From: Thermoplasmata archaeon
GTDB taxonomy: Archaea > Thermoplasmatota > Thermoplasmata > Lutacidiplasmatales > UBA184
DNA: 64,000 nt
Direction: 5' to 3'
Assembly (NCBI GenBank): GCA_049584655.1
Contig: JBAUYF010000007.1
Location: forward strand, 27,288-91,287
Each line of letters opens with the position of its first letter. Position 1 is the first letter of the stretch. The notes below the pieces were generated by a model. The model did no database searches. It was not told the DNA's origin and was given only the letters and a program-made list of their open reading frames with translations. The position numbers were made by a program, and so were the translations under genes. Shown one piece after another: positions 4,795 to 60,980 of this stretch.

Positions 4795-5571
4795 TTAGGT
4801 TCCGAACGTTCGGGTGACGCGAACAGTTCCTGCCAATACGAAGGCGGGCGCCAACAACGCGAGGACCGGCGCCGCGAGCAGCAAGTATTGCGCTCCCTCG
4901 AAGGGGGTAAAAAGGAAAATGAAGGGTCCGACCAGAACCAAAAGTAGGATCGCATAGAGCGCGCCCCCGCCAGAAAGAGCCGGTTGACCGTATCGGGCGG
5001 CGCTCAGAATCAAACCCGCCACAATACCCACGGCGCCTATCCAACCCAACCAGAAACCAATGAGTGCGATCGAGGCGCCGATGGGCTGCGTAGATTTGAG
5101 ACAGGAGTAGATGTGCCCCGGTTGACCTCGTAGGCACGAAACCATGCTATTCGCCGAGCCGAGCACGATGGCGGCGACAATGACGATGAGGAGGAACCCG
5201 ATGGATCCGATCAAACAGAGTATCGAGGCAACGCGAAATCCCCCCGACACCTTTCGGAGGGCCGAAAAGGCCCGTCGATACTCGAAGAGGGATACGAGGA
5301 AAAGCAGAGCTCCGGCGAGCAGGGCGATACTGACGACATCGATGAGCGAGTTGCCGTAGGTGAAGAATCCACCCGGCTCGTACGTGCTAAGCCAGAGGAA
5401 CGTTACCGGGAGAACGAACAATGCGATCGCTGCTGCCAATCCCAGACCGGCCCCGGTCCCGAGGCGCCGAACTCCTCGTTGGTCTTCCTTCAAGATCAGG
5501 TGGCTTGCGATCATATTGTCATGCTGGAGGGAGCTCCCCGGACCAGGGCGCGGGAGAGTCAGAGAGCCCAA
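4795..5571 (-). CDS. hypothetical polytopic membrane protein
   Basis: 258 aa with about 6 TM helices. Divergent from 5817..6740. Start uncertain (internal MIASH possible). Confidence 0.6.
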   Translation of the reverse strand: MGSLTLPRPGPGSSLQHDNMIASHLILKEDQRGVRRLGTGAGLGLAAAIALFVLPVTFLWLSTYEPGGFFTYGNSLIDVVSIALLAGALLFLVSLFEYRRAFSALRKVSGGFRVASILCLIGSIGFLLIVIVAAIVLGSANSMVSCLRGQPGHIYSCLKSTQPIGASIALIGFWLGWIGAVGIVAGLILSAARYGQPALSGGGALYAILLLVLVGPFIFLFTPFEGAQYLLLAAPVLALLAPAFVLAGTVRVTRTFGT

Positions 5572-6839: not shown

Positions 6840-7550
6840 GTGGCTCCTACCTATGGAAGTTCAATGCCGGCCTCATGTCCCGATTGCGGTGCCCAGGTGG
6901 AGTACGTCTCCGAGCCGGCACGCCTCCTCTCCGGCACCTGCGGGTCCTGCCATCACGAATTCACGATTGTGGGGGGTCACCTCGACGTCAAGCCCGCACC
7001 GGATGCCCGGTCTCGGGCGGAGGTCGGCGCCGAGGGGCCAGCGGCTCCGCAAGGGCCGACCTGCCCAGATTGCGGCGCCCCGACCGCGTTGAGGGTGACC
7101 TCCTCGCGTTCGATTGAGTCGGTCTGCTCCGACTGCGACTCGACGCGTATGTTCGTTCTATCGGACGGAAGTCGACCACCTGCGCGCGAGCCCCGATCCG
7201 ATCGGGGTTGGCGCGATGACGGGGATCGTCGAGCGCCTTCGGCCAGTCGTCCCTGCCGGCAATGCGGCGCCCCGCTGACTTTCACCACGGGTGAAGACGG
7301 GCTGTTGACGGGAGAATGCACCCAGTGCGGGAACCGGTTTACGCTCCCCGCACGCCGTGACTCAGGGGGCCCGCGCAACGATCGCCGCGAGCGCCCGTCA
7401 TTCGGACGCAGCCGTCCCTCCGGATATTCCGGGGGTCGGAACTTCTCCCGCGGCTCGGGGCGACCTCCATCCTACGAGCGAAGGGGCCGACGGAACGATT
7501 CGTCGGACGATGCGGAGGCGCCTCGCCGTCGGCGGCCGCGGCGCGAGTAG
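6840..7550 (+). CDS. triple zinc-ribbon protein with Arg/Gly-rich C-terminal tail
   Basis: Three repeats of the module CPxCG-x17/18-CxxC: C13/C16-C34/C37, C75/C78-C96/C99 and C139/C142-C160/C163. Followed by an RG/RS-rich tail ending RRRRPRRE. Confidence 0.6.
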   Translation: MAPTYGSSMPASCPDCGAQVEYVSEPARLLSGTCGSCHHEFTIVGGHLDVKPAPDARSRAEVGAEGPAAPQGPTCPDCGAPTALRVTSSRSIESVCSDCDSTRMFVLSDGSRPPAREPRSDRGWRDDGDRRAPSASRPCRQCGAPLTFTTGEDGLLTGECTQCGNRFTLPARRDSGGPRNDRRERPSFGRSRPSGYSGGRNFSRGSGRPPSYERRGRRNDSSDDAEAPRRRRPRRE

Positions 7551-52479: not shown

Positions 52480-53967
52480 TCACGGTCCCGCAGCGCGCAG
52501 GCGAACGATCTCTGCTTCGACATCGCCGACCGGTTCGTGGGCCGCTCGGAGGTCTTCGAGATTTATTCCCACATTGGCCAGCGCGCCCTCGCTGGTGGCC
52601 CGAAGTAGTGCGAGGGACGTCACGAGGTCGCTTTCCAATGCCGCCTTTACTCGACTCCGCATATTCCCGAGGGTATCGCTGAGGTGACGTGCGAGCCGAG
52701 CCGTCTCGAGCGGAACTTCCGCTGCCTTGCGAAGGCTTACCACCCAAACCTTCTGGACCACGGAGTCGTGCGGGCGTTCTTTGAGGTCCCGTCGCGCCGA
52801 ACGCACGGATTCGTACGCCGCCGAATCTTCCCCGACGAGCTCCAAGAAACGAGCACGGGCGGCTCGGGCGGAGCTCAAGGCCGGTTCGAGCACTGGGTCT
52901 TCTCCGCCTTTGGGGATCGAGTAGGCTAGCGCCATCTCTCCGAGAGCGGCCCCCATCGCCCCGGCCGCCGCCGCCGCACTCCCTCCGCCCGGAGTAGGAG
53001 TACGGGCGGCGATCCGCTCGACGAACTCTCGGAACGGTTCGGCGGCCATGCCGCTGGTTCCGGACGTTCCAACCGAGCGGACTTTCCGTTCTAAAACTGC
53101 GGATCGGTCGAACCGATTGAGCTGGAGATAGTACTCCGCTGCGTCGAACAGAGCGTCTTCGGGGATGAGGCCCACGACTTCGGACTCCTCGATCGTCACG
53201 CCGAAACGTGCGGCTTCTCGTCGCACGAACTCGAGTGCCCGGGGGACGGACGTCCGACGGTAGTCGGTCAGATTCATCGAGACTTGGGCTCGTTGACGTT
53301 CCTTGATCTCGAAGCCGAGTGCTTTGACCTCCACCAACCCGCCGTCACGGGCGCGAATGGCCTTCGCAATCTTCTTGGCGATCGCCACGTCCGGGGTCGA
53401 CAGATAGGCGTTGTAGGCGATCAGTACAGGTCGCGCGCCGATAGCTACCGCACCGGCAGTCGGGTGGATTCGAGGTTCTCCGAAGTCCGGTGTGCGTGCC
53501 GGATCGGATGCGATCGCGTCCCGGATTCCCTCGAATTGACCTTCGCGCACGCGTGCGAGGTCGGCGCGCTCCGGTCGCTGGGCGGCCAATCCGTAGAGGT
53601 AGACCGGTATCTTGAGCTCTCGAGCGACCCGCTCGCTCAATTGGCGCGCGAGCCCCACCGCATCTTCCATCGAGGACTCCCCTAGTGGCACAAAGGGGAC
53701 GACATCCGTTGCGCCCATCCGGGGATGCTCTCCGTGGTGATGCGTAAGATCGATCAGTTCGGTCGCGACGCGCATCATTCGAATGACTGCCTCGACGAGA
53801 TCGTTGCCCTCGCCGGCGAGCGAAATGACGCATCGGTGATGGTCGGCGTTGCTCTCGATGTCGAGGACTGTGACGTGCGGAACCGCGCGGGCGGCATCTG
53901 CGATCCGAGTGATGATCGCGGCATCGCGTCCCTCGGAAAAGTTGGGGACGCACTCGAACATGGTCAT
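52480..53967 (-). CDS. glutamate formimidoyltransferase / formimidoyltetrahydrofolate cyclodeaminase (bifunctional FTCD-like)
   Basis: N-domain FECVPNFSEGRD...HHRCVISLAG. C-terminal cyclodeaminase domain TPTPGGGSAAAAAGAMGAALGEMA. Confidence 0.85.
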   Translation of the reverse strand: MTMFECVPNFSEGRDAAIITRIADAARAVPHVTVLDIESNADHHRCVISLAGEGNDLVEAVIRMMRVATELIDLTHHHGEHPRMGATDVVPFVPLGESSMEDAVGLARQLSERVARELKIPVYLYGLAAQRPERADLARVREGQFEGIRDAIASDPARTPDFGEPRIHPTAGAVAIGARPVLIAYNAYLSTPDVAIAKKIAKAIRARDGGLVEVKALGFEIKERQRAQVSMNLTDYRRTSVPRALEFVRREAARFGVTIEESEVVGLIPEDALFDAAEYYLQLNRFDRSAVLERKVRSVGTSGTSGMAAEPFREFVERIAARTPTPGGGSAAAAAGAMGAALGEMALAYSIPKGGEDPVLEPALSSARAARARFLELVGEDSAAYESVRSARRDLKERPHDSVVQKVWVVSLRKAAEVPLETARLARHLSDTLGNMRSRVKAALESDLVTSLALLRATSEGALANVGINLEDLRAAHEPVGDVEAEIVRLRAAGP

Positions 53968-54998
53968 GGATCCGGCCCGCCGTACGTTTCAAGCAGCGTT
54001 TGACGCGCGCGCGCGTCCGCCGGCGAACTCGTCACCACCGGCCGTTTCCGAGCTCGTGCCACGGCCGCCTTGACACGATCCGGAGAAAATCCGTGTCCCT
54101 CCACGAGAATCCGCTCTACCGCGGCCTCGTCCACCGGTCCAAAATAAGGCGCGGCGGTTGCCTCCACTGCGGGATGGCGGAACAGTTCCGCAACGGGCTC
54201 CACCTCTTTGGGATCGAGGCCGGCCTTCATCAGCGTTGCCTCCCAGCCCAGATGTTCTTGCACCAACTTCAGCGCCCGTTTCGGCCCTATCCCTTTGGCT
54301 CCGTCGTTGAAATCCGTTCCCACGAGAATCCCGATCAGAATTAGCTCATCTCCGCTCACTCCAAGCTGACTCAGCAAGTCGTCCCGGTTCACGAGCTGGG
54401 CGCCCGGGCTCTGACCGGCCCGCCCCCGCGCAGCGAGGCCCCGCACGAGCCGAGGAGCGCCAAAGAGGAGCGAATCATAATCTTCGGAGGCGGCTGCCCA
54501 AACGGATCCGCGCGCTGCCATTGTCGCCGCCTGGGCTTCGCCTTCCGACGGCGCTTGCACGGAAGGTACTCCCAACGCAGTCAGCAACTCCCGAACTTCC
54601 TCGACCATGGATCGCGTGAGCCGGGAAGTCTGCGCGGCCTTCTTGCGCGCAGTTTCGAGATCCCCGGCGGCGAGTGCTTCACTCCACTGCGCCTCGGCGC
54701 GCTCTTTGGCGAGTATCCTCGACCGGATCGTTCCGGCCTTAAGATCCGGCGGGCGACCGTCGAAGACCCATACCGGAAGGACGCCTTGGCTCAGGAGCGA
54801 TGAGGTGCGATAGAAAACCCCAATCAGATGGCTGGTGGGGTGGCCCTCCGGATCCGTGAACGGCATCCCATCGCGCTGGCGAATCGTCGCGAGGAATTGG
54901 TAAATGGCGTTGTAGCCGTCGACAGCCAAGGAGCGCCCGGAGAGGGCGTCCCAAGGAAGCTCCTGCGGGCTGACCAACTCCCGAAACGGAAGGCCCAC
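53964..54998 (-). CDS. fen: flap endonuclease 1
   Basis: GTG start at 54998 (VGLPFRELV...). LAVDGYNAIYQF, THLIGVFYR, VFDG, SEGEAQAA and GTDFN are XPG-N/I motifs. 344 aa. The upstream part of ORF 53964..55175 is rejected. Confidence 0.9.
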   Translation of the reverse strand: MGLPFRELVSPQELPWDALSGRSLAVDGYNAIYQFLATIRQRDGMPFTDPEGHPTSHLIGVFYRTSSLLSQGVLPVWVFDGRPPDLKAGTIRSRILAKERAEAQWSEALAAGDLETARKKAAQTSRLTRSMVEEVRELLTALGVPSVQAPSEGEAQAATMAARGSVWAAASEDYDSLLFGAPRLVRGLAARGRAGQSPGAQLVNRDDLLSQLGVSGDELILIGILVGTDFNDGAKGIGPKRALKLVQEHLGWEATLMKAGLDPKEVEPVAELFRHPAVEATAAPYFGPVDEAAVERILVEGHGFSPDRVKAAVARARKRPVVTSSPADARARQTLLETYGGPDP

Positions 54999-55116
54999 GA
55001 TCGAAGCGAAGCGGCGCGGAGTACTTGTGGTTGCCGTCGGAAAGTTTTGGTGGCGGTGCTGGAACGTGCGCGAAGGGTGAAGTACCGGAGGCCGTACTGC
55101 CGGCGCGAGGAAGGCG

Positions 55117-55902
55117 ATGGAGATCAAGTGGCAGGATGAGGCAGGATCCTCCGGGCTCGAACCAGGCGCCGTCATTGTGTCGAGCTTCCCGAGCGCGGGA
55201 CTCGCCGCGACCGTTGCGGCGCATTACATGGTCCAAGCCCTCAAACTCCCCCGCATCGGAATCTTCGACGGGCCGGACATGGCGCCCATCGCCGTCGTAC
55301 AGGACGGCGTGGTGAATCCTCCGATCCGAGTCTACGGGCAGAAGGATTTTGCCGCGATCCTCTCGGAGTTTCCTCCGACTCCCGCCTTGGCGTCCGCGCT
55401 GGCGACGACGATCTTGAACGGCGCAATCCAGCGCAAGGCGCGGATGATTGTGTGTTTTGAGGGGGTGGTCCCGCACCCGTTGGAGGAGGGTCAGGATCCG
55501 GCCGCGGAGGCCCCCGATGAAAAGGTCTGGGTTGCTTTTGCCCGCAAGGACCCGGCTATCACCAAGACGTTCGAGCCCACCCAGGCAGGACTGCTGGAGG
55601 ATGGGGTACTCGGCGGAGTCTCCGGAGCGCTGCTCGTCCAGGGTATCAACCGCTCGATTCCCGTCGCCGTGTTACTCGTCAGCGCACGGGCGGTCGAAGG
55701 GCTTCCCGATCATCGGGCGGGCGCGGCGTTGATCGAAACGTTCGATCGGTTGCTCCCGGAGCTCAAGATCGATACGGGGCCTCTAAGAGTCGAAGCGGAG
55801 CGCATCGAACGAGCGCTACGCGCCGCGATGAAAACGCACGGAAAATCGGAAGCGGCGGGAAAGGCTATCGTCGAGCCGGCAAGCGCGGACATGTACCGGT
55901 AA
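55117..55902 (+). CDS. PAC2-family proteasome assembly chaperone-like protein
   Basis: 261 aa. VSSFPSAGLAATVAAHYMV near the N-terminus and the overall pattern resemble archaeal PAC2/PbaA-type proteins. Confidence 0.65.
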   Translation: MEIKWQDEAGSSGLEPGAVIVSSFPSAGLAATVAAHYMVQALKLPRIGIFDGPDMAPIAVVQDGVVNPPIRVYGQKDFAAILSEFPPTPALASALATTILNGAIQRKARMIVCFEGVVPHPLEEGQDPAAEAPDEKVWVAFARKDPAITKTFEPTQAGLLEDGVLGGVSGALLVQGINRSIPVAVLLVSARAVEGLPDHRAGAALIETFDRLLPELKIDTGPLRVEAERIERALRAAMKTHGKSEAAGKAIVEPASADMYR

Positions 55903-55928: not shown

Positions 55929-56093
55929 CTAATAGGCGTCGGTATAGGTCAACAGGTAGAGGACGCCCCCGACCATCACGGTGAGGAGGATCAGGATCGA
56001 GATCGGATTGGAGGAAAAGACCGCGACCGTCAACCCGATCAACACAGCGGGGAGGAGGATCGCCAGGAGGAATGTCCAGAGCTTTCCGTCCAT
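55929..56093 (-). CDS. 54-aa two-TM membrane protein downstream of the FtsZ-like gene
   Basis: MDGKLWTFLLAILLPAVLIGLTVAVFSSNPISILILLTVMVGGVLYLLTYTDAY. ATG 56093, TAG 55929-55931. Same strand, 87 nt after the FtsZ-like stop. Below the ORF-track cutoff. Confidence 0.5.
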   Translation of the reverse strand: MDGKLWTFLLAILLPAVLIGLTVAVFSSNPISILILLTVMVGGVLYLLTYTDAY

Positions 56094-56180
56094 CGCAACC
56101 GCGAGGAGCCCGAGCTCCTCTTAACGATTCTAGCTCGAGGCGAGAGCGCCCCGACCGTCGATGACTCGGTTACCCACTCC

Positions 56181-57104
56181 TCAGTGGAGCGCCTCGGGGG
56201 GACGCGGAGGAGATTCGATCTCGAACGTCAACTCGGCCTCGTGGAACGACGGGCTGGCGGCAGGGGTAGGGGCGTAGGGGCCTAGTCGGGCGGGGCTCTC
56301 GGGCGGAAGCGAAACTTCGATCGTCAGGGGAGCCGACTCGGGGGGCTCGTTCATCGCCCGCCGCGCTCCGAGGGGCCGGGCCGCGGCCGCCGCTACGAGT
56401 GCTTCTGTGGGAATGAGATAGGCTTTCTCGATGTGACTCGCGATCGTTTCCGCCCAGTGTTGGTCCAGCTGGTTGAAAGGAAGCTTGCGCTGCCGCGCCG
56501 CCAGGTACTCGTTGTCGAGGACCTGGAGATTCGCACACCCACGTTGTTGCTTCGCGACGAACTCCTCCACGAAATGCAGGCGCGCCAGCCCACGATCCGC
56601 AACGGACCGGCGGTCCCCTTCCGCGAGGAAGGGCTTGATCACAAAGGCGGAGAGGATTTCGCACTGCCGTGCGGCGGCGCCAAGTACGTAAGGGAACGCT
56701 CCCGTTCCACTGCCGCCCCCCAGACTGCCGACGACGGTGACGAATGTGGCGCCCTCAAAGATTCGGTCCAGCGCCGGCTGCGCGGCGTGCGCCAGCATAC
56801 CGCCGACCACCGTGGAGCCACCGGTATCGGTCTCGACACCCGAATCGGGACCCAAGTAAACGCGTCGATCGAACTCCTCGAAACCCTGGACGCGGGGATC
56901 GCAGTTGATGGCTACGGTCTCGAGATAGCGAAGATGTCGGCGGGCGATGGCCCGGCCGACTTGGATAGCTCCGCCGCCGACAGCGGCCAAAACGAAACGG
57001 ACGTCGTGACCGAGCCGCAAGTCCTCCAACCCTTCGACCGCCGGGTCGGACGGCTCTTCCAGGTTGATCTCTCGGTTGGGTCCATCTCGTGCGGCCTCGT
57101 ACAT
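56181..57104 (-). CDS. FtsZ/tubulin-superfamily GTPase, N-terminal GTPase domain only, with Pro-rich repeat tail
   Basis: Start at ATG 57104 (GGGGAG 6 nt upstream). AVGGGA (T1), VAINCD, SLGGGSGTGAFP (tubulin signature), KPFLAEGDRR and VLDNEYL are collinear with the FtsZ N-domain. No T7-loop/C-domain. The tail carries LTIEVSLPP and LTFEIESPP repeats. Confidence 0.75.
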   Translation of the reverse strand: MYEAARDGPNREINLEEPSDPAVEGLEDLRLGHDVRFVLAAVGGGAIQVGRAIARRHLRYLETVAINCDPRVQGFEEFDRRVYLGPDSGVETDTGGSTVVGGMLAHAAQPALDRIFEGATFVTVVGSLGGGSGTGAFPYVLGAAARQCEILSAFVIKPFLAEGDRRSVADRGLARLHFVEEFVAKQQRGCANLQVLDNEYLAARQRKLPFNQLDQHWAETIASHIEKAYLIPTEALVAAAAARPLGARRAMNEPPESAPLTIEVSLPPESPARLGPYAPTPAASPSFHEAELTFEIESPPRPPEALH

Positions 57105-57141
57105 TGCAACTCCCCTGCGTCGTGTCTTCCCTTGCCGCTCC

Positions 57142-57669
57142 CTATCGACCGACGACCCCCTTTCGCTCCAAATCGCGGGCACTCTCTTGGAGGGCACCGA
57201 CTTGAGCCCGCTGTTCGGCGGCTTGCTGGACCGACGTGCGCGCGCGTTGGACGAGTTCGACGACCTTGAGTTCGAGCTCGGCTCGACGCACGAACTCGGC
57301 GAGGACATCGCCGATCGGGCGGTCGTTTCCGACAAGTCGAGCGTAGGCGCCCAGGGTTTCGATCTCATCGCTTCGCAGTCGAACGGGAACTTCGACGATT
57401 CCCGTAGGGTCCAAGCGGGCCGGGGGTGTGGCCGACAGCGCCCGAGCACGCAAGAAGCTGCGCAGCGCCTCTCGCATCAACTCCGAGCGGCTGGCAAACT
57501 CTCCGTTCGAGACGAACGAATCCAGCAGCTGGAGCTCTTTGCGGTTGCACCGTAGGGCGATGCGCTCATCCTCGCGACCCGCCAGGCGGTCTGCCGATTC
57601 TTTCGAACCTTCAGATGCCTTGTTGGGAGCGTTGTCGAACACGACTGGGCGCTGGTATGCAGAATGCAA
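57142..57669 (-). CDS. tandem ribbon-helix-helix (CopG/Arc-like) protein with C-terminal coiled coil
   Basis: RHH1 is RIALRCNRKELQLLDSFV...SRSELMREALRSFL. RHH2 is VEVPVRLRSDEIETLGAYARL...IGDVLAEFVRRAEL. A heptad-like tail follows. The listed TTG start abuts the TATA box, so GTG 57642 is a more likely start. Confidence 0.7.
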   Translation of the reverse strand: MHSAYQRPVVFDNAPNKASEGSKESADRLAGREDERIALRCNRKELQLLDSFVSNGEFASRSELMREALRSFLRARALSATPPARLDPTGIVEVPVRLRSDEIETLGAYARLVGNDRPIGDVLAEFVRRAELELKVVELVQRARTSVQQAAEQRAQVGALQESARDLERKGVVGR

Positions 57670-57670
57670 C

Positions 57671-57678
57671 TATTTAAA
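57671..57678 (-). promoter_or_regulatory. TATA box (TTTAAATA) for the RHH / FtsZ-like operon
   Basis: Perfect archaeal TATA consensus TTTAWATA on the minus strand in a locally AT-rich spacer. About 33 nt upstream of in-frame GTG 57642. Confidence 0.5.
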
Positions 57679-57814
57679 GAGATGCCATGGGCTGCGCCGA
57701 GCATTGCACCGGTACGTCCTAGCAGGAGTTCTATGACGTGTCGAACAAATTTTGATAGGCCGGAACTAGCGTCGATCGTGAAAATCTCACTGTATAACCG
57801 CTCCAAATTTTCGC

Positions 57815-57822
57815 AAAAAAAA
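57815..57822 (-). terminator. oligo-T terminator (T8 on minus strand) after pilin-like gene 57888..58739
   Basis: A8 on the plus strand, 66 nt downstream of the stop, in AT-rich spacer. Confidence 0.4.
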
Positions 57823-57887
57823 CACGCGCGAAGGTGCGACGTTGGAACGAACTACATTCAATCGCGCGCAGGATCGCGGTCGACTCT

Positions 57888-58739
57888 CTAATCGACTCCC
57901 GCGATGCCGTAGATCTGGATCGCGGCGAGAATGGTCGACGGGTATCCTTCGTAGGTCAGGTAGATCTCACACGCCCCCGGCACCACGAAGCACCAACCAG
58001 GAGCGCCGTGGAAGTCGTCCCCGTCGACGCAGGGGTTGCCGGAGTAACCCGGGGCGCAGTCCCCGCTGTAGTCGAGCGGGGTTCCCGGGGTGTGCGTGTA
58101 CAGGATGAACGTATCCCCATTGTTGACCACGCCGGAATAGTTCAGGAGCGGTACGAAAATCCCGAGCCGATTGTACAGTGTGCTATAGGACCCCGAGGGG
58201 ATGAACGTCCCGCACTCCCCGAGGTGGGGCGCGTTAGGGGCGGGTCCCGTGGAACTTCCCGGGAACCAGGTCATGGCCGCCAATGATCCTTGTACCAAGT
58301 AGGTCGTGTAGTTCTGCCCCAGAGCATTGGTCGCTCGGCAGACGAACGAGAACTGGATCTCATCCAGCGAGATATCATCGGGTGTGTGTTGGGTAAAAAC
58401 GATCTGCGTGGAATTCATCTGGGAGTAATTCCCGGTCGCCGTAGTATCACACTGATACGTGATCGCGTTTCCCAACGTCCAGGTGTGCGGGAGCACGTTG
58501 TTGACCCAGGGAAAGTGATACGAATCGAATGTACAGTCGGTCGGATCTCCCCAGACGGGATTCGAAGTGCCCGATCGAACCAGGTAGGAAAGCGTGGGAG
58601 CGGGAGTGGGAAGGTTGAGGTGGAACTCCCACAAGATCGAGCCGACGGCCACCGTCAGGCCGACCAGGAGGACCATCGAAATGATGGTGCTCACGGCCCG
58701 CAACGGCCCAACGCGCCGACGGGACCACTTTCGGACCAT
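57888..58739 (-). CDS. archaeal type IV pilin-like protein (class III signal peptide)
   Basis: N-terminus MVRKWSRRRVGPLRAVSTIISMVLLVGLTVAVGSIL has a basic leader, a small residue, then a hydrophobic helix (pilin_N/DUF1628-like). Four N-x-S/T sequons. Confidence 0.7.
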   Translation of the reverse strand: MVRKWSRRRVGPLRAVSTIISMVLLVGLTVAVGSILWEFHLNLPTPAPTLSYLVRSGTSNPVWGDPTDCTFDSYHFPWVNNVLPHTWTLGNAITYQCDTTATGNYSQMNSTQIVFTQHTPDDISLDEIQFSFVCRATNALGQNYTTYLVQGSLAAMTWFPGSSTGPAPNAPHLGECGTFIPSGSYSTLYNRLGIFVPLLNYSGVVNNGDTFILYTHTPGTPLDYSGDCAPGYSGNPCVDGDDFHGAPGWCFVVPGACEIYLTYEGYPSTILAAIQIYGIAGVD

Positions 58740-59029: not shown

Positions 59030-59623
59030 ATGCACGTATTTGGACGGAAAGCGAGAAGTTGGAGAAAGGGGCGCAAGCGGGGAGTATCCCCGATCATCGC
59101 TACGATTTTGCTCGTGGCGATTACCGTGGTACTGGCTGCCGTGCTCTATATCCTCATCTCGGGATTGACGAAGGGACCCGGCAACACGCCGCTTAGCACG
59201 GCGTTTGGATTCGGAACAGCGACCCAAGTGAACCCGACAGCCACTACGGCTGGCGAGTGCACAGCAGCTCACTTCTGCTATGAGATCGCGATTAGCGAAG
59301 CGAGCGGCGGGCTCACGGCGAACGATATCCAGCTGAAGCTGACCACGAATACGGGCACGATCATTGCGGTGAACGACTTCTATGTCGATGCCGCGAACTT
59401 GGCCGTGAACGGTTATCTCGCGTCCGCCGTCAACCCCTCCGGGGCATGGGCGTCGACCGCGGGAACGGGTGGAGCAGCCGTCGAAATTACGGGCACGACC
59501 GTCATGACCGGCGCGATGGTCATGTGGATCGATATTACCGCGTCCGTATACGGCACCGGCGCCATCTTGACCGCGTTCGGACAGGGGTCGTTCTCGTCTT
59601 CGGTCTCGACCACCCTCCCGTAA
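59030..59623 (+). CDS. archaeal type IV pilin (class III signal peptide, pilin_N domain)
   Basis: KGRKRGVSPIIATILLVAITVVLAAVLY is the canonical archaeal prepilin N-terminus (cleavage expected after RG). Thr/Ala/Gly-rich beta domain. Confidence 0.8.
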   Translation: MHVFGRKARSWRKGRKRGVSPIIATILLVAITVVLAAVLYILISGLTKGPGNTPLSTAFGFGTATQVNPTATTAGECTAAHFCYEIAISEASGGLTANDIQLKLTTNTGTIIAVNDFYVDAANLAVNGYLASAVNPSGAWASTAGTGGAAVEITGTTVMTGAMVMWIDITASVYGTGAILTAFGQGSFSSSVSTTLP

Positions 59624-59753: not shown

Positions 59754-60980
59754 ATGATTTACCGAGAGGTCGTTGTGAGAAGGGCCAGTCGACGTGTTGC
59801 GCTTCGAACTCAGAATTTCCGACGCTCTCGGCGGTCCTTCCGCCGGAACGGCCGCGGGGTATCGGAGGTCGTCGCGACGATCCTGCTGCTCGGTCTCACC
59901 GTAACGTTGTTCTCCTCTATCTTTTTCTTCGTCAACACGTTTCCCCGACCTCCTTCCCAATCTGCCAGCCAGTTCCAGGGGTCGCTGCTCTTTACGCCGA
60001 ACGGTGGCTACATCACGAACGTCCTGATCTTGCACCTCTCCGGTCAAGTGCTGAGCTCGCCCGTGACGACGATCTACATGCGATCCTCGGCGAACCCGGG
60101 CTTCTACAGCGCCCAATACACGGTCGCGCAGGGGCTCAATGGCTCCAACTACTGGGCGCTCGGTCAGACCTGGAACATCTCGCTCACCTCCACGGGACCG
60201 CAGCCCGGGCCCTCTCCCAACGGCGACCCCGTCCCGGACAACATGACCGTCTACATCCTGTCGGGAACGCAGTTGATTTTCACTGTCACGCTCCCCGGTC
60301 AAGTGCCGGCGCTGGCCCCTTACTTTACGAATTTCGGAACCAAGCCGTCTCCCCCCGTGGTGGCGCAGGCCTTCAATATAACGATCTTCGTCTCAAGCAC
60401 CGATCTGAACACGCACTCGGTCTACGTGAACATCTCGCAGCTTCCGGGAGTGTCGGGCGCCTTGCTAAACGCCCAGAAGATGACGAAGGGCAGCTTACCG
60501 GGGGAATACTACTACAACGTCCCCGCCGGGGTGACTTCGAATACGGGGACCTACTACGTGGTGTTCAACGCTACCGATGCCATGACAGGCCTTCGGGGGG
60601 CGCAGGGCTTCGCCTTGACGATCCAGACGCCCAGCAGCCCATCCACGCTGCTCACCGTGGGGGCCGTCAACTTGACGGCTGTCTATCACGGAGGCACGAA
60701 ACCGGCGTACTTCTCCGCGATAGTTTCGGACCTGGCCGTCTCCGGGGGTACGGCGAACGTCACGGTTTGGTTCAACATCACGATCAACGGAGGCGCGTCC
60801 ACTACGATCGGCACGGCCGTCACCGGAACGGTGGGCCCGGGCGGGACCATCACCTTGAATTCCGCAGCGTTCAAGACGGCCGCGACGAGCGCCGCGGGTC
60901 AGAAATGGGTCCTGCTGGTCACGGCGACCGCAACCAGCTTGGGGACCGCCACGGGAACGATCTCGGGCGTCCTCAGTTAG
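59754..60980 (+). CDS. large archaeal pilin-like surface glycoprotein (class III signal peptide)
   Basis: RRNGRGVSEVVATILLLGLTVTLFSSIFFF prepilin-like N-terminus after an Arg-rich leader (alternative GTG start at codon 8). About 9 N-x-S/T sequons. Confidence 0.7.
   Translation: MIYREVVVRRASRRVALRTQNFRRSRRSFRRNGRGVSEVVATILLLGLTVTLFSSIFFFVNTFPRPPSQSASQFQGSLLFTPNGGYITNVLILHLSGQVLSSPVTTIYMRSSANPGFYSAQYTVAQGLNGSNYWALGQTWNISLTSTGPQPGPSPNGDPVPDNMTVYILSGTQLIFTVTLPGQVPALAPYFTNFGTKPSPPVVAQAFNITIFVSSTDLNTHSVYVNISQLPGVSGALLNAQKMTKGSLPGEYYYNVPAGVTSNTGTYYVVFNATDAMTGLRGAQGFALTIQTPSSPSTLLTVGAVNLTAVYHGGTKPAYFSAIVSDLAVSGGTANVTVWFNITINGGASTTIGTAVTGTVGPGGTITLNSAAFKTAATSAAGQKWVLLVTATATSLGTATGTISGVLS

Follow-up and report, generated by a model that had tools for sequence, protein, structure and literature searches.

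A three-gene Thermoplasmata operon encoding an FtsZ paralogue without the C-terminal domain, a candidate modulator of FtsZ assembly

In a 64,000-nucleotide stretch of a Thermoplasmata archaeon genome (contig JBAUYF010000007.1; hereafter the window), we analyzed a module of three head-to-tail minus-strand open reading frames (ORFs) at positions 55,929 to 57,678, which encode a ribbon-helix-helix (RHH) protein, an FtsZ paralogue and a 54-aa protein with two transmembrane (TM) helices. The FtsZ paralogue, here called half-FtsZ, consists of an FtsZ nucleotide-binding domain with helix H7 (residues ~36-242), to which a disordered linker rich in Pro and Ala and a C-terminal peptide are attached. The three genes most likely form a chromosomal operon that is inherited vertically in Thermoplasmata. 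We tentatively propose that this operon is autoregulated and makes a one-faced FtsZ subunit, either a modulator or capper of FtsZ assemblies or a tethered GTP switch; we give this statement as a whole a probability of roughly 0.4, and rate the anatomy of the protein and the autoregulation, each taken by itself, higher. The coding features are as follows:

57142..57642, minus strand: gene for the RHH-domain DNA-binding protein, 166 aa (profile, alignment and model)
56181..57104, minus strand: half-FtsZ gene, encoding the 307-aa FtsZ paralogue (profile, alignment, model and Foldseek)
56217..56234, minus strand: C-terminal peptide ELTFEI of half-FtsZ, residues 291-296, candidate docking motif (conservation)
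55929..56093, minus strand: gene for the 54-aa two-TM protein, third of the module in this branch (conservation and coding signature)

An earlier note, made from the sequence alone, had matched the first part of half-FtsZ motif for motif with the N-terminal GTPase domain of FtsZ and had judged the FtsZ C-terminal domain (C-domain) and the T7 loop to be missing; profile searches, structure prediction and a Foldseek search upheld both statements. The protein carries AVGGGA, AINCD, SLGGGSGTGAFP, KPFLAEGDRR, VLDNEYL and a long H7, and with its tubulin signature, SLGGGSGTG, it belongs to the Tubulin/FtsZ superfamily. The Pfam Tubulin profile (PF00091) scored 40.8 bits, above its gathering score of 33, and the FtsZ_C profile (PF12327) gave no match even at E<=1. 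The FtsZ equivalog profile TIGR00065 reached 59.9 bits, below its cut-off of 295.2, and matched residues 42-177 only; in a single-protein search, solved FtsZ structures aligned with residues ~40-177 at E ~1e-12. In A1, the family alignment and profile of the window half-FtsZ, invariant residues comprised GGG (T1), N67-C68-D69 (T2), DTGGS (T3) and GGGxGxG (T4), together with PFxxEGxRR (T5/H5) and LDN (T6). The T7 loop NxDFAD was found neither in A1 nor in A3, the profile of short FtsZ proteins of the Methanomassiliicoccales type described below.

The AlphaFold2 model of half-FtsZ, built from 38 homologues, had predicted local distance difference test (pLDDT) values >85 at residues ~30-245, where the elements run in the order S1-H1 to S6-H6-H7 and H7 spans residues 210-242. 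Residues 249-293 were disordered, and the model ended its folded part at H7, with no C-domain and no coiled coil. Among the 50 listed Foldseek matches in the PDB there was only FtsZ (E ~1e-11), over ~195-200 aligned columns, which corresponds to the extent of the nucleotide-binding domain plus H7. The protein is without the GTPase-activating C-domain, the T7 loop, H8 and the bottom interface.

This truncation is conserved. The half-FtsZ frame is open as far as 57449, an extension that overlaps the RHH gene and is unused: the homologues all begin at the position that corresponds to ATG 57104. Among 5.8 billion proteins searched there were 457 relatives of ~305 aa, of which the best 120 were 284-324 aa long, 54-96% identical and derived from metagenome-assembled genomes (MAGs) of Thermoplasmata, and when one genome per GTDB species was scanned, relatives turned up in at least 106 genomes. 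The locus-neighbor and tail counts given below refer to the best 80 of these 106 GTDB species loci, which are Thermoplasmata MAGs bar two differently labelled, many of them from soil or peat surveys, and include UBA184, UBA61 and Candidatus Lutacidiplasma silvani; the closest relative is 96% identical. Since no orthologue has the C-domain or the T7 loop, the truncation is not a frameshift, and we rejected a frameshift or assembly error in the window copy on the ground that its homologues have the same length.

When a profile was run against 1.84 billion cluster representatives, the family showed a sharp boundary, with ~20 representatives below E 1e-30 and canonical FtsZ coming next, at 60-79 bits and over positions ~38-180 only. 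Intermediate short proteins of 260-303 aa were alignable through H7 (P0272, P0277, P0282, P0286 and others). The A3 profile retrieved more than 100 clusters of 257-310 aa, whose source-named members were Methanomassiliicoccales MAGs and one Euryarchaeota archaeon. In an hhalign comparison, A1 and A3 were homologous through H7 (probability 99.7%, E 2.7e-25), and A3 lay nearer to canonical FtsZ than the window family, with 215 bits to M. jannaschii FtsZ1 versus 57 bits. M. jannaschii FtsZ1 was the best solved-structure match of this sister family, and no FtsZ2-labelled chain was among its matches. A less diverged short FtsZ, with an RHH gene ahead of it, is abundant in Methanomassiliicoccales. 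We also sought an FtsZ of the window's own lineage among the profile matches by amino-acid composition and source names, which yielded only the Natronoplasma FtsZ and those of unrelated archaea; P0279, the best-scoring canonical FtsZ match, was considered as an FtsZ2 by gene context and rejected, there being no RHH gene upstream of it. The A1 profile had no viral relatives, and A3 had only two distant viral matches at 22-28% identity. A mobile-element origin was rejected on the lack of viral A1 relatives and on the fold matches in BFVD, which were ordinary phage tubulins and weaker than FtsZ.

The tail of half-FtsZ ends in a conserved peptide. The terminal motif E[LV]T[FL]E[VI] was present in 77 of the 80 species loci, and in A1 residues E291, F294 and E295 were invariant, with L292 and T293 nearly so. 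Of the two motif copies that the earlier note had pointed out in the tail, ELTFE[IV] is thus conserved, whereas the second, PLTIEVSL, was restricted to the closest relatives of the window protein. The likeness drawn there to the tethering peptide of FtsZ is reasonable. Canonical archaeal FtsZ-like matches have C-termini of the G-I-[DE]/N-I-D type (GIEII, NIDFV, GIDKIL), and the archaeal FtsZ C-terminal peptide, centered on a nearly invariant GID, binds SepF in an extended conformation (PMC8178401). The GID motif is absent from the half-FtsZ tail, although the succession of a hydrophobic residue, a small residue, I/F and an acidic residue resembles the GID pattern. Distant family members retain [DE]-V-E-[LI]-x-[FL]-E near the C-terminus, and the short FtsZ proteins of the Methanomassiliicoccales type have conserved terminal peptides of their own, such as HADLDPMFNGFGPSMFG. 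With a linker and a conserved terminal peptide, both short-FtsZ branches thus retain the FtsZ layout, but with a motif other than GID.

In the protein encoded by the first gene of the module, an RHH unit occupies residues ~25-65, a second unit has a strand-helix-helix shape, and a C-terminal helix of ~50 residues ends in a conserved GVVGR, as judged from the model and the alignment (A2) of this protein. For the first unit, the RHH_1 profile (PF01402) gave 19.6 bits, just under the gathering score of 20.5, and the upstream proteins of two loci of the Methanomassiliicoccales type, L009 and L011, which are candidate orthologues, exceeded that cut-off with 23.5 and 22.2 bits; hhalign aligned these two proteins to A2 with probabilities of 89% and 75%. 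The best NCBIfam match of the window RHH unit was CdrS (NF058555, E 5e-5), at 23.1 bits against a cut-off of 100, which leaves it outside the CdrS equivalog. The earlier note had described two RHH units forming a single-chain pseudo-dimer. Its first unit is supported by the scores of the candidate orthologues, but its second (VEVPVRLR...) agrees only in the strand-helix-helix topology of the model: hhalign of half 1 against half 2 gave a probability of 0.6%, Pfam gave no match and Foldseek nothing significant. Since unit 2 has no statistical support as RHH, we treat the tandem pseudo-dimer as a hypothesis and not as an observation. The weak Foldseek matches of the RHH model were the ParD and PrpA antitoxins, and these were not significant.

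The RHH gene was first listed as 57142..57669 (175 aa). Because most homologues are 165-168 aa long and only 2 nt separate the listed TTG from the TATA box, the gene most likely starts at GTG 57642, which gives a 166-aa product and, at 29 nt downstream of the TATA box, fits a near-leaderless archaeal transcript. The sequence confirmed the arrangement of three same-strand ORFs with gaps of 37 nt (RHH to half-FtsZ) and 87 nt (half-FtsZ to the 54-aa ORF), as the earlier note had described it, and also the perfect box placed ahead of the set, TTTAAATA at 57678..57671. The following features lie around the promoter:

57791..57799, minus strand: conserved element GGTTATACA, ~150 nt ahead of the RHH start and unchanged among four loci with only 55-60% protein identity (upstream alignment A4)
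57739..57747, minus strand: operator-like site 1, TGTTCGACA, upstream of the TATA box and ~104 nt ahead of the RHH start
57671..57678, minus strand: TATA box TTTAAATA of the operon promoter, read from the sequence; TTTAA[AG]TAG in orthologous loci
57633..57641, minus strand: operator-like site 2, TGTTCGACA, overlapping the start codon (GTG TTC GAC AAC, read as V/M-F-D-N)

Phased operator-like sites at the RHH promoter are a new observation. The 64-kb window holds two copies of TGTTCGACA, both at this promoter and 106 nt apart (expected 0.4), and the four loci of A4 share an invariant TGTTCGACAC ~100 nt upstream and an invariant GTGTTCGACAAC at the start codon. Across the 75 analysable upstream regions of the GTDB loci, GT[TC]CGAC occurred at least two times in every one; it stood at +2 in 74, at -103/-104 in nearly all and at -124/-125 in ~50. 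The resulting spacings of 21 and 106 bp are whole helical turns, 106 bp being ~10 turns. More distant loci carried other repeats: TGTCCGACAAAA twice between the TATA box and the ATG in L006, GGACAAAA twice at the corresponding place in L011, TATGAC five times within 90 nt flanking the TATA box in L009, and TATGAC four times in L016, where one copy includes the start codon (ATGTATGAC). The repeats differ by lineage yet hold their position, as expected of operators that co-evolve with their regulator, and on this pattern the RHH protein most likely autoregulates the operon through the phased GT[TC]CGAC sites. Its near-invariant N-terminal F-D-N may be held by the DNA site as much as by the protein. 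The element GGTTATACA may be a second TATA-like box or another regulatory site. In L006, the operator-like motif of that lineage has a third copy, TGTCCGACA, within the 3'-terminal part of the FtsZ-like gene (5193..5201, minus strand of the locus).

The 54-aa protein has two transmembrane helices, a conserved SxNP turn and a YL..Y C-terminus. In 77 ungapped orthologues, which start with ATG or GTG, the fractions of non-consensus bases at codon positions 1, 2 and 3 were 0.245, 0.148 and 0.335; because third-position variation exceeds first and first exceeds second, we regard the ORF as a real gene. A homologue lies downstream of half-FtsZ in 79 of the 80 loci, and none was present next to the Methanomassiliicoccales-type short FtsZ genes at the loci examined, so that the small membrane partner proposed in the earlier note holds for this branch but not for the sister family. 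Elsewhere found ~90 nt from the FtsZ-like gene, the ORF lies 300-700 nt downstream of it in L074, L085, L086 and L092, which suggests an insertion between the two genes. In L011, the distant short FtsZ gene is followed downstream by a 66-aa two-TM ORF (4897..5097, minus strand of the locus), which is encoded on the other strand and runs convergently with it. Between the half-FtsZ stop and the 54-aa ORF start of the window, the minus strand carries a perfect hairpin, GGAGC-TCGG-GCTCC, at 56105..56118, which overlaps GAGGAG.

An RHH homologue stands directly upstream of half-FtsZ in 79 of the 79 loci with room for one, and PAC2 is present at 78 of the 80 GTDB loci. Since gene order at these loci is broadly syntenic, they are not independent evidence for linkage. 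A distant family member at L006/L007 has NDK, Sua5 and M24 peptidase genes on one side and AsnC and RNA polymerase genes on the other, and it keeps the whole triad, with a 160-aa RHH protein, a 314-aa half-FtsZ and a 56-aa TM protein bearing SxNP and LYLxSY. In L009, L011 and L016, loci of the Methanomassiliicoccales type where the neighbors differ again, a protein of 120-148 aa with the RHH unit and the second unit precedes the short FtsZ. The association of the RHH gene with half-FtsZ, on which the earlier note's idea of a module depended, is therefore conserved in unrelated neighborhoods (L006, L009, L011, L016) as well as in the 79 syntenic loci.

On our proposal, the RHH protein would bind the sites at ~-125, at -104 and at its own start codon and so set the transcription level of the operon, a logic that we liken to that of CdrL and CdrS at the haloarchaeal cdrS-ftsZ2 locus (PMC7439475). 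Half-FtsZ, having T1-T6 together with N67 and D69 (T2) and R165 and R166 (H5), should bind GTP and offer an intact top face; without T7, H8 and the C-domain, it could neither activate a neighbor's hydrolysis nor be extended from its bottom face. In FtsZ filaments, each active site is completed by the T7 loop of the subunit above it, incoming monomers join through their GTP-bound top face to the growing end that exposes T7, and mutations of the bottom interface are toxic (PMC8936486). Half-FtsZ would most likely modulate canonical FtsZ assemblies by adding to their T7-exposing growing end, so that filaments would be capped or shortened; alternatively, it could act as a GTP-dependent switch. In either case the linker and C-terminal peptide would hold it at a partner, for example SepF or another docking protein, and the 54-aa two-TM protein would be a branch-specific membrane accessory. 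That half-FtsZ could take its T7 loop from canonical FtsZ fits with the invariance of D69, R165 and R166, which matter mainly in the composite active site.

Several points weigh against this proposal. The 64-kb window contains no canonical FtsZ1, FtsZ2 or SepF, and the C-terminal LTFE[IV] is not the archaeal GID. The window nucleotide-binding domain is strongly diverged, scoring 57 bits to FtsZ over positions 41-178 only, and its top face may have ceased to match FtsZ. In A1, the H7 Asp that contacts guanine is not evident. A neighbor-joining tree of the nucleotide-binding domain grouped the two short-FtsZ branches in only 29 of 100 bootstraps. The RHH call in the window falls 0.9 bits below the Pfam cut-off, the operator-like sites could be bound by a different regulator, and the 54-aa TM protein has almost no soluble surface on which a peptide could dock.

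The earlier note had offered the genes as a candidate minimal cytoskeletal or segregation module. For segregation of the TubZRC/ParMRC type, the upstream repeats would be the centromere, the RHH protein the adaptor, and the FtsZ-like GTPase the motor, captured by its flexible tail. The order of repeated DNA sites, DNA-binding gene and tubulin-family GTPase with a flexible tail and terminal peptide does fit tubC-tubR-tubZ, the L009 repeats are iteron-like (five TATGAC at ~10-13 nt spacing, flanking the TATA box), and RHH adaptors serve in the ParR and ParG systems. We nevertheless consider it quite unlikely, since the GTPase is without the T7 loop and the entire bottom interface required for a cytomotive filament, the window lineage has only 2-3 sites and no large iteron array, the chromosomal locus exists in one copy and keeps its synteny among housekeeping genes in 78 of 80 genomes, no relatives occur on viral contigs, and TubZ/RepX scored 34-36 bits to A3 versus 215 bits for FtsZ. 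In TubZRC, which is borne by plasmids or phages, the GTPase TubZ has two domains and forms filaments, and TubR is of the winged-helix type; membership of half-FtsZ in that system was rejected on the absent C-domain, the chromosomal context and the TubZ/RepX scores, only the upstream repeats being shared. With 2-3 phased operators and no large iteron array, the RHH protein resembles an autoregulator rather than a centromere adaptor, and nothing indicates a self-sufficient cytoskeletal or segregation module in a locus that has no T7 loop or bottom interface, is single-copy and chromosomal, and has no viral relatives.

An autonomous GTPase for non-canonical assembly or membrane remodelling is an alternative that would not need canonical FtsZ: half-FtsZ would self-associate through a new interface, such as the exposed H7 face, or through the long helix of the RHH protein, and work at the membrane with the 54-aa protein. 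Loss of the C-domain exposes the H7 side and the sheet, H7 is unusually long (210-242), the RHH partner bears its ~50-residue helix, and the membrane protein is co-conserved in two non-syntenic lineages; moreover, Makarova and Koonin proposed novel assembly modes for FtsZl1, which is without recognisable T6-H7, T7 and C-domain (PMC2875224). We hold this to be unlikely because the TM partner is missing from the Methanomassiliicoccales-type loci, the GTPase itself has no coiled coil or extra domain, and the invariance of D69, R165 and R166 is easier to explain with a T7 donor. The fact that FtsZ similarity ends near residue 180 in single-protein searches could suggest a decaying remnant of an ftsZ paralogue, truncated like a pseudogene or by an assembly error, with neighbors syntenic by chance. 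A length of ~305 aa and motifs that are constant in hundreds of homologues and 106 species genomes, a confidently predicted fold, a conserved terminal peptide and a partner gene kept in unrelated neighborhoods make such decay highly improbable.

The operon also invites comparison with RHH antitoxin operons of the ParD, PrpA and CopG type, with which it shares an N-terminal RHH, a C-terminal partner-binding helix, the first-gene position of the RHH gene and operator repeats overlapping the promoter; it differs in having no known toxin family downstream, strictly vertical single-copy inheritance across an order and no link to mobile elements. By analogy, and as a speculation that we regard as improbable, half-FtsZ, as a subunit with a top face only, might poison filaments by capping their growing end, while the RHH protein would repress the operon at the phased operators and neutralise or release the capper through its long C-terminal helix. 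If true, this domesticated antitoxin-like circuit would be a division checkpoint built from FtsZ itself in Thermoplasmata, the gut methanogen order Methanomassiliicoccales included.

As the earlier note had foreseen, the module could not be assigned to a described system: it falls outside FtsZl1, FtsZl2, CetZ, TubZ and the CdrS equivalog. Half-FtsZ shares with canonical FtsZ (TIGR00065, PF00091 plus PF12327) the nucleotide-binding fold, T1-T6, H7, a disordered linker and a short terminal peptide; canonical FtsZ has in addition the C-domain, T7 NxDFAD, H8 and a GID peptide, in place of which half-FtsZ has LTFE[IV]. The cdrS-ftsZ2 pair, which is widespread in Euryarchaeota, likewise has a small RHH gene directly upstream of and co-oriented with an FtsZ paralogue, and an RHH regulator binds there, the cdrS-ftsZ2 promoter being the only one bound by CdrL (PMC7439475). 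CdrL carries a double zinc ribbon and FtsZ2 both domains (PMC7439475), whereas the window GTPase has the nucleotide-binding domain only; CdrS is ~60 aa long (NCBIfam profile length 61), whereas the window RHH protein has 166 aa with an extra unit and a long helix. A 236-aa protein encoded ~50 kb from the module (6840..7550, plus strand) matched the double zinc ribbon (DZR) profile at E 9e-7, and haloarchaeal CdrL is often annotated only by its C-terminal DZR domain (PMC7439475).

Like half-FtsZ, FtsZl1 is a divergent member of the FtsZ superfamily with an unrecognisable canonical C-domain, for which non-canonical assembly has been proposed; its type, Huta_2051, is a 1051-aa protein whose C-domain is helical and which also contains a long coiled coil, and FtsZl1 operons include genes for vWA, a distinct GTPase and OmpA-family proteins and no RHH partner (PMC2875224). 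Membership was rejected for half-FtsZ, which has 307 aa, no coiled coil, and RHH, small TM, PAC2 and FEN-1 neighbors. FtsZl2 is proteobacterial, retains T7 and has a ~300-aa C-terminal alpha/beta region and no RHH partner (PMC2875224), and was rejected for an archaeal protein with no T7 and a disordered tail. CetZ was rejected because its chains (4B45, 4B46, 3ZID) scored 42-69 bits to A3 versus 157-215 bits for FtsZ chains; no CetZ chain was among the window-protein matches (E <= 0.01) or the A1-profile matches (E <= 1e-12). The membrane anchor CdpC was unrelated to the module. The proposed capping follows a logic similar to that of MciZ, MipZ and toxic bottom-face FtsZ mutants, in which the growing end is occupied or terminated and filaments are shortened sub-stoichiometrically (PMC8936486, PMC9897490); those end-cappers are unrelated small proteins or laboratory mutants, whereas the candidate capper here would be half of FtsZ itself, evolved in nature.

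FtsZ and tubulin are defined by two-domain subunits that complete each other's active site, and a family with only the nucleotide-binding half, conserved class-wide, is a natural experiment on the abilities of that half by itself. As a candidate regulator of FtsZ that derives from FtsZ itself, half-FtsZ would be the first of its kind, in archaea with few known division regulators, and the RHH gene with its phased operators extends the theme of an RHH protein paired with an FtsZ paralogue, known from CdrS and CdrL, to Thermoplasmatota. According to published surveys, most archaea have FtsZ1 and FtsZ2, and Thermoplasmatota are one of the phyla in which FtsZ occurs; in the open-access full-text literature we found no description of a C-domain-less Thermoplasmatota FtsZ or of its RHH partner, and one passage on a missing C-terminal domain concerned a pilus ATPase. 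Short-FtsZ genes are annotated as "hypothetical protein" or, automatically, as "cell division protein FtsZ", so surveys that count FtsZ copies may misclassify them. Methanomassiliicoccales is an order with cultured members, and experiments may be feasible if cultured strains carry the short FtsZ; among the names retrieved for the A3 family, none was a cultured source.

The module is a single-copy chromosomal gene set among housekeeping genes. The other genes of the window are those of an ordinary chromosome and include RIO kinases, topoisomerase VI A and B, succinyl-CoA ligase, a complex I operon, Band 7, NfeD, primase small subunit, FTCD, FEN-1, PAC2 and archaeal pilin genes. No second tubulin signature was present in the 64-kb window, and no SepF, CdvB or MinD family member turned up among the ~55 window proteins scanned. 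A pilin-like cluster adjoins the module (57888..58739, minus strand; 59030..59623, plus strand; 59754..60980, plus strand), in which two proteins matched Pilin_N and the third has a pilin-like hydrophobic N-terminus and no Pfam match. Pilin_N genes also flank the module in L001 and L003, and CetZ-family genes have been reported near pilus loci (PMC4858521); the adjacency of pilin genes and module may be plain synteny. About 65 nt downstream of the end of the gene at 57888..58739, a run, GTGTTTTTTTTGCGAAAATTT, at 57805..57824 (minus strand) resembles an oligo-T terminator of the archaeal kind; if it acts as one, it would set the RHH operon apart from that gene.

On the other side of the module, the FEN-1 ORF as listed (53964..55175, minus strand) has ~60 extra N-terminal residues, its TIGR03674 match beginning at residue 61, and overlaps the start of the divergent PAC2 gene (55117..55902, plus strand). 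The true FEN-1 start is probably near 54995.

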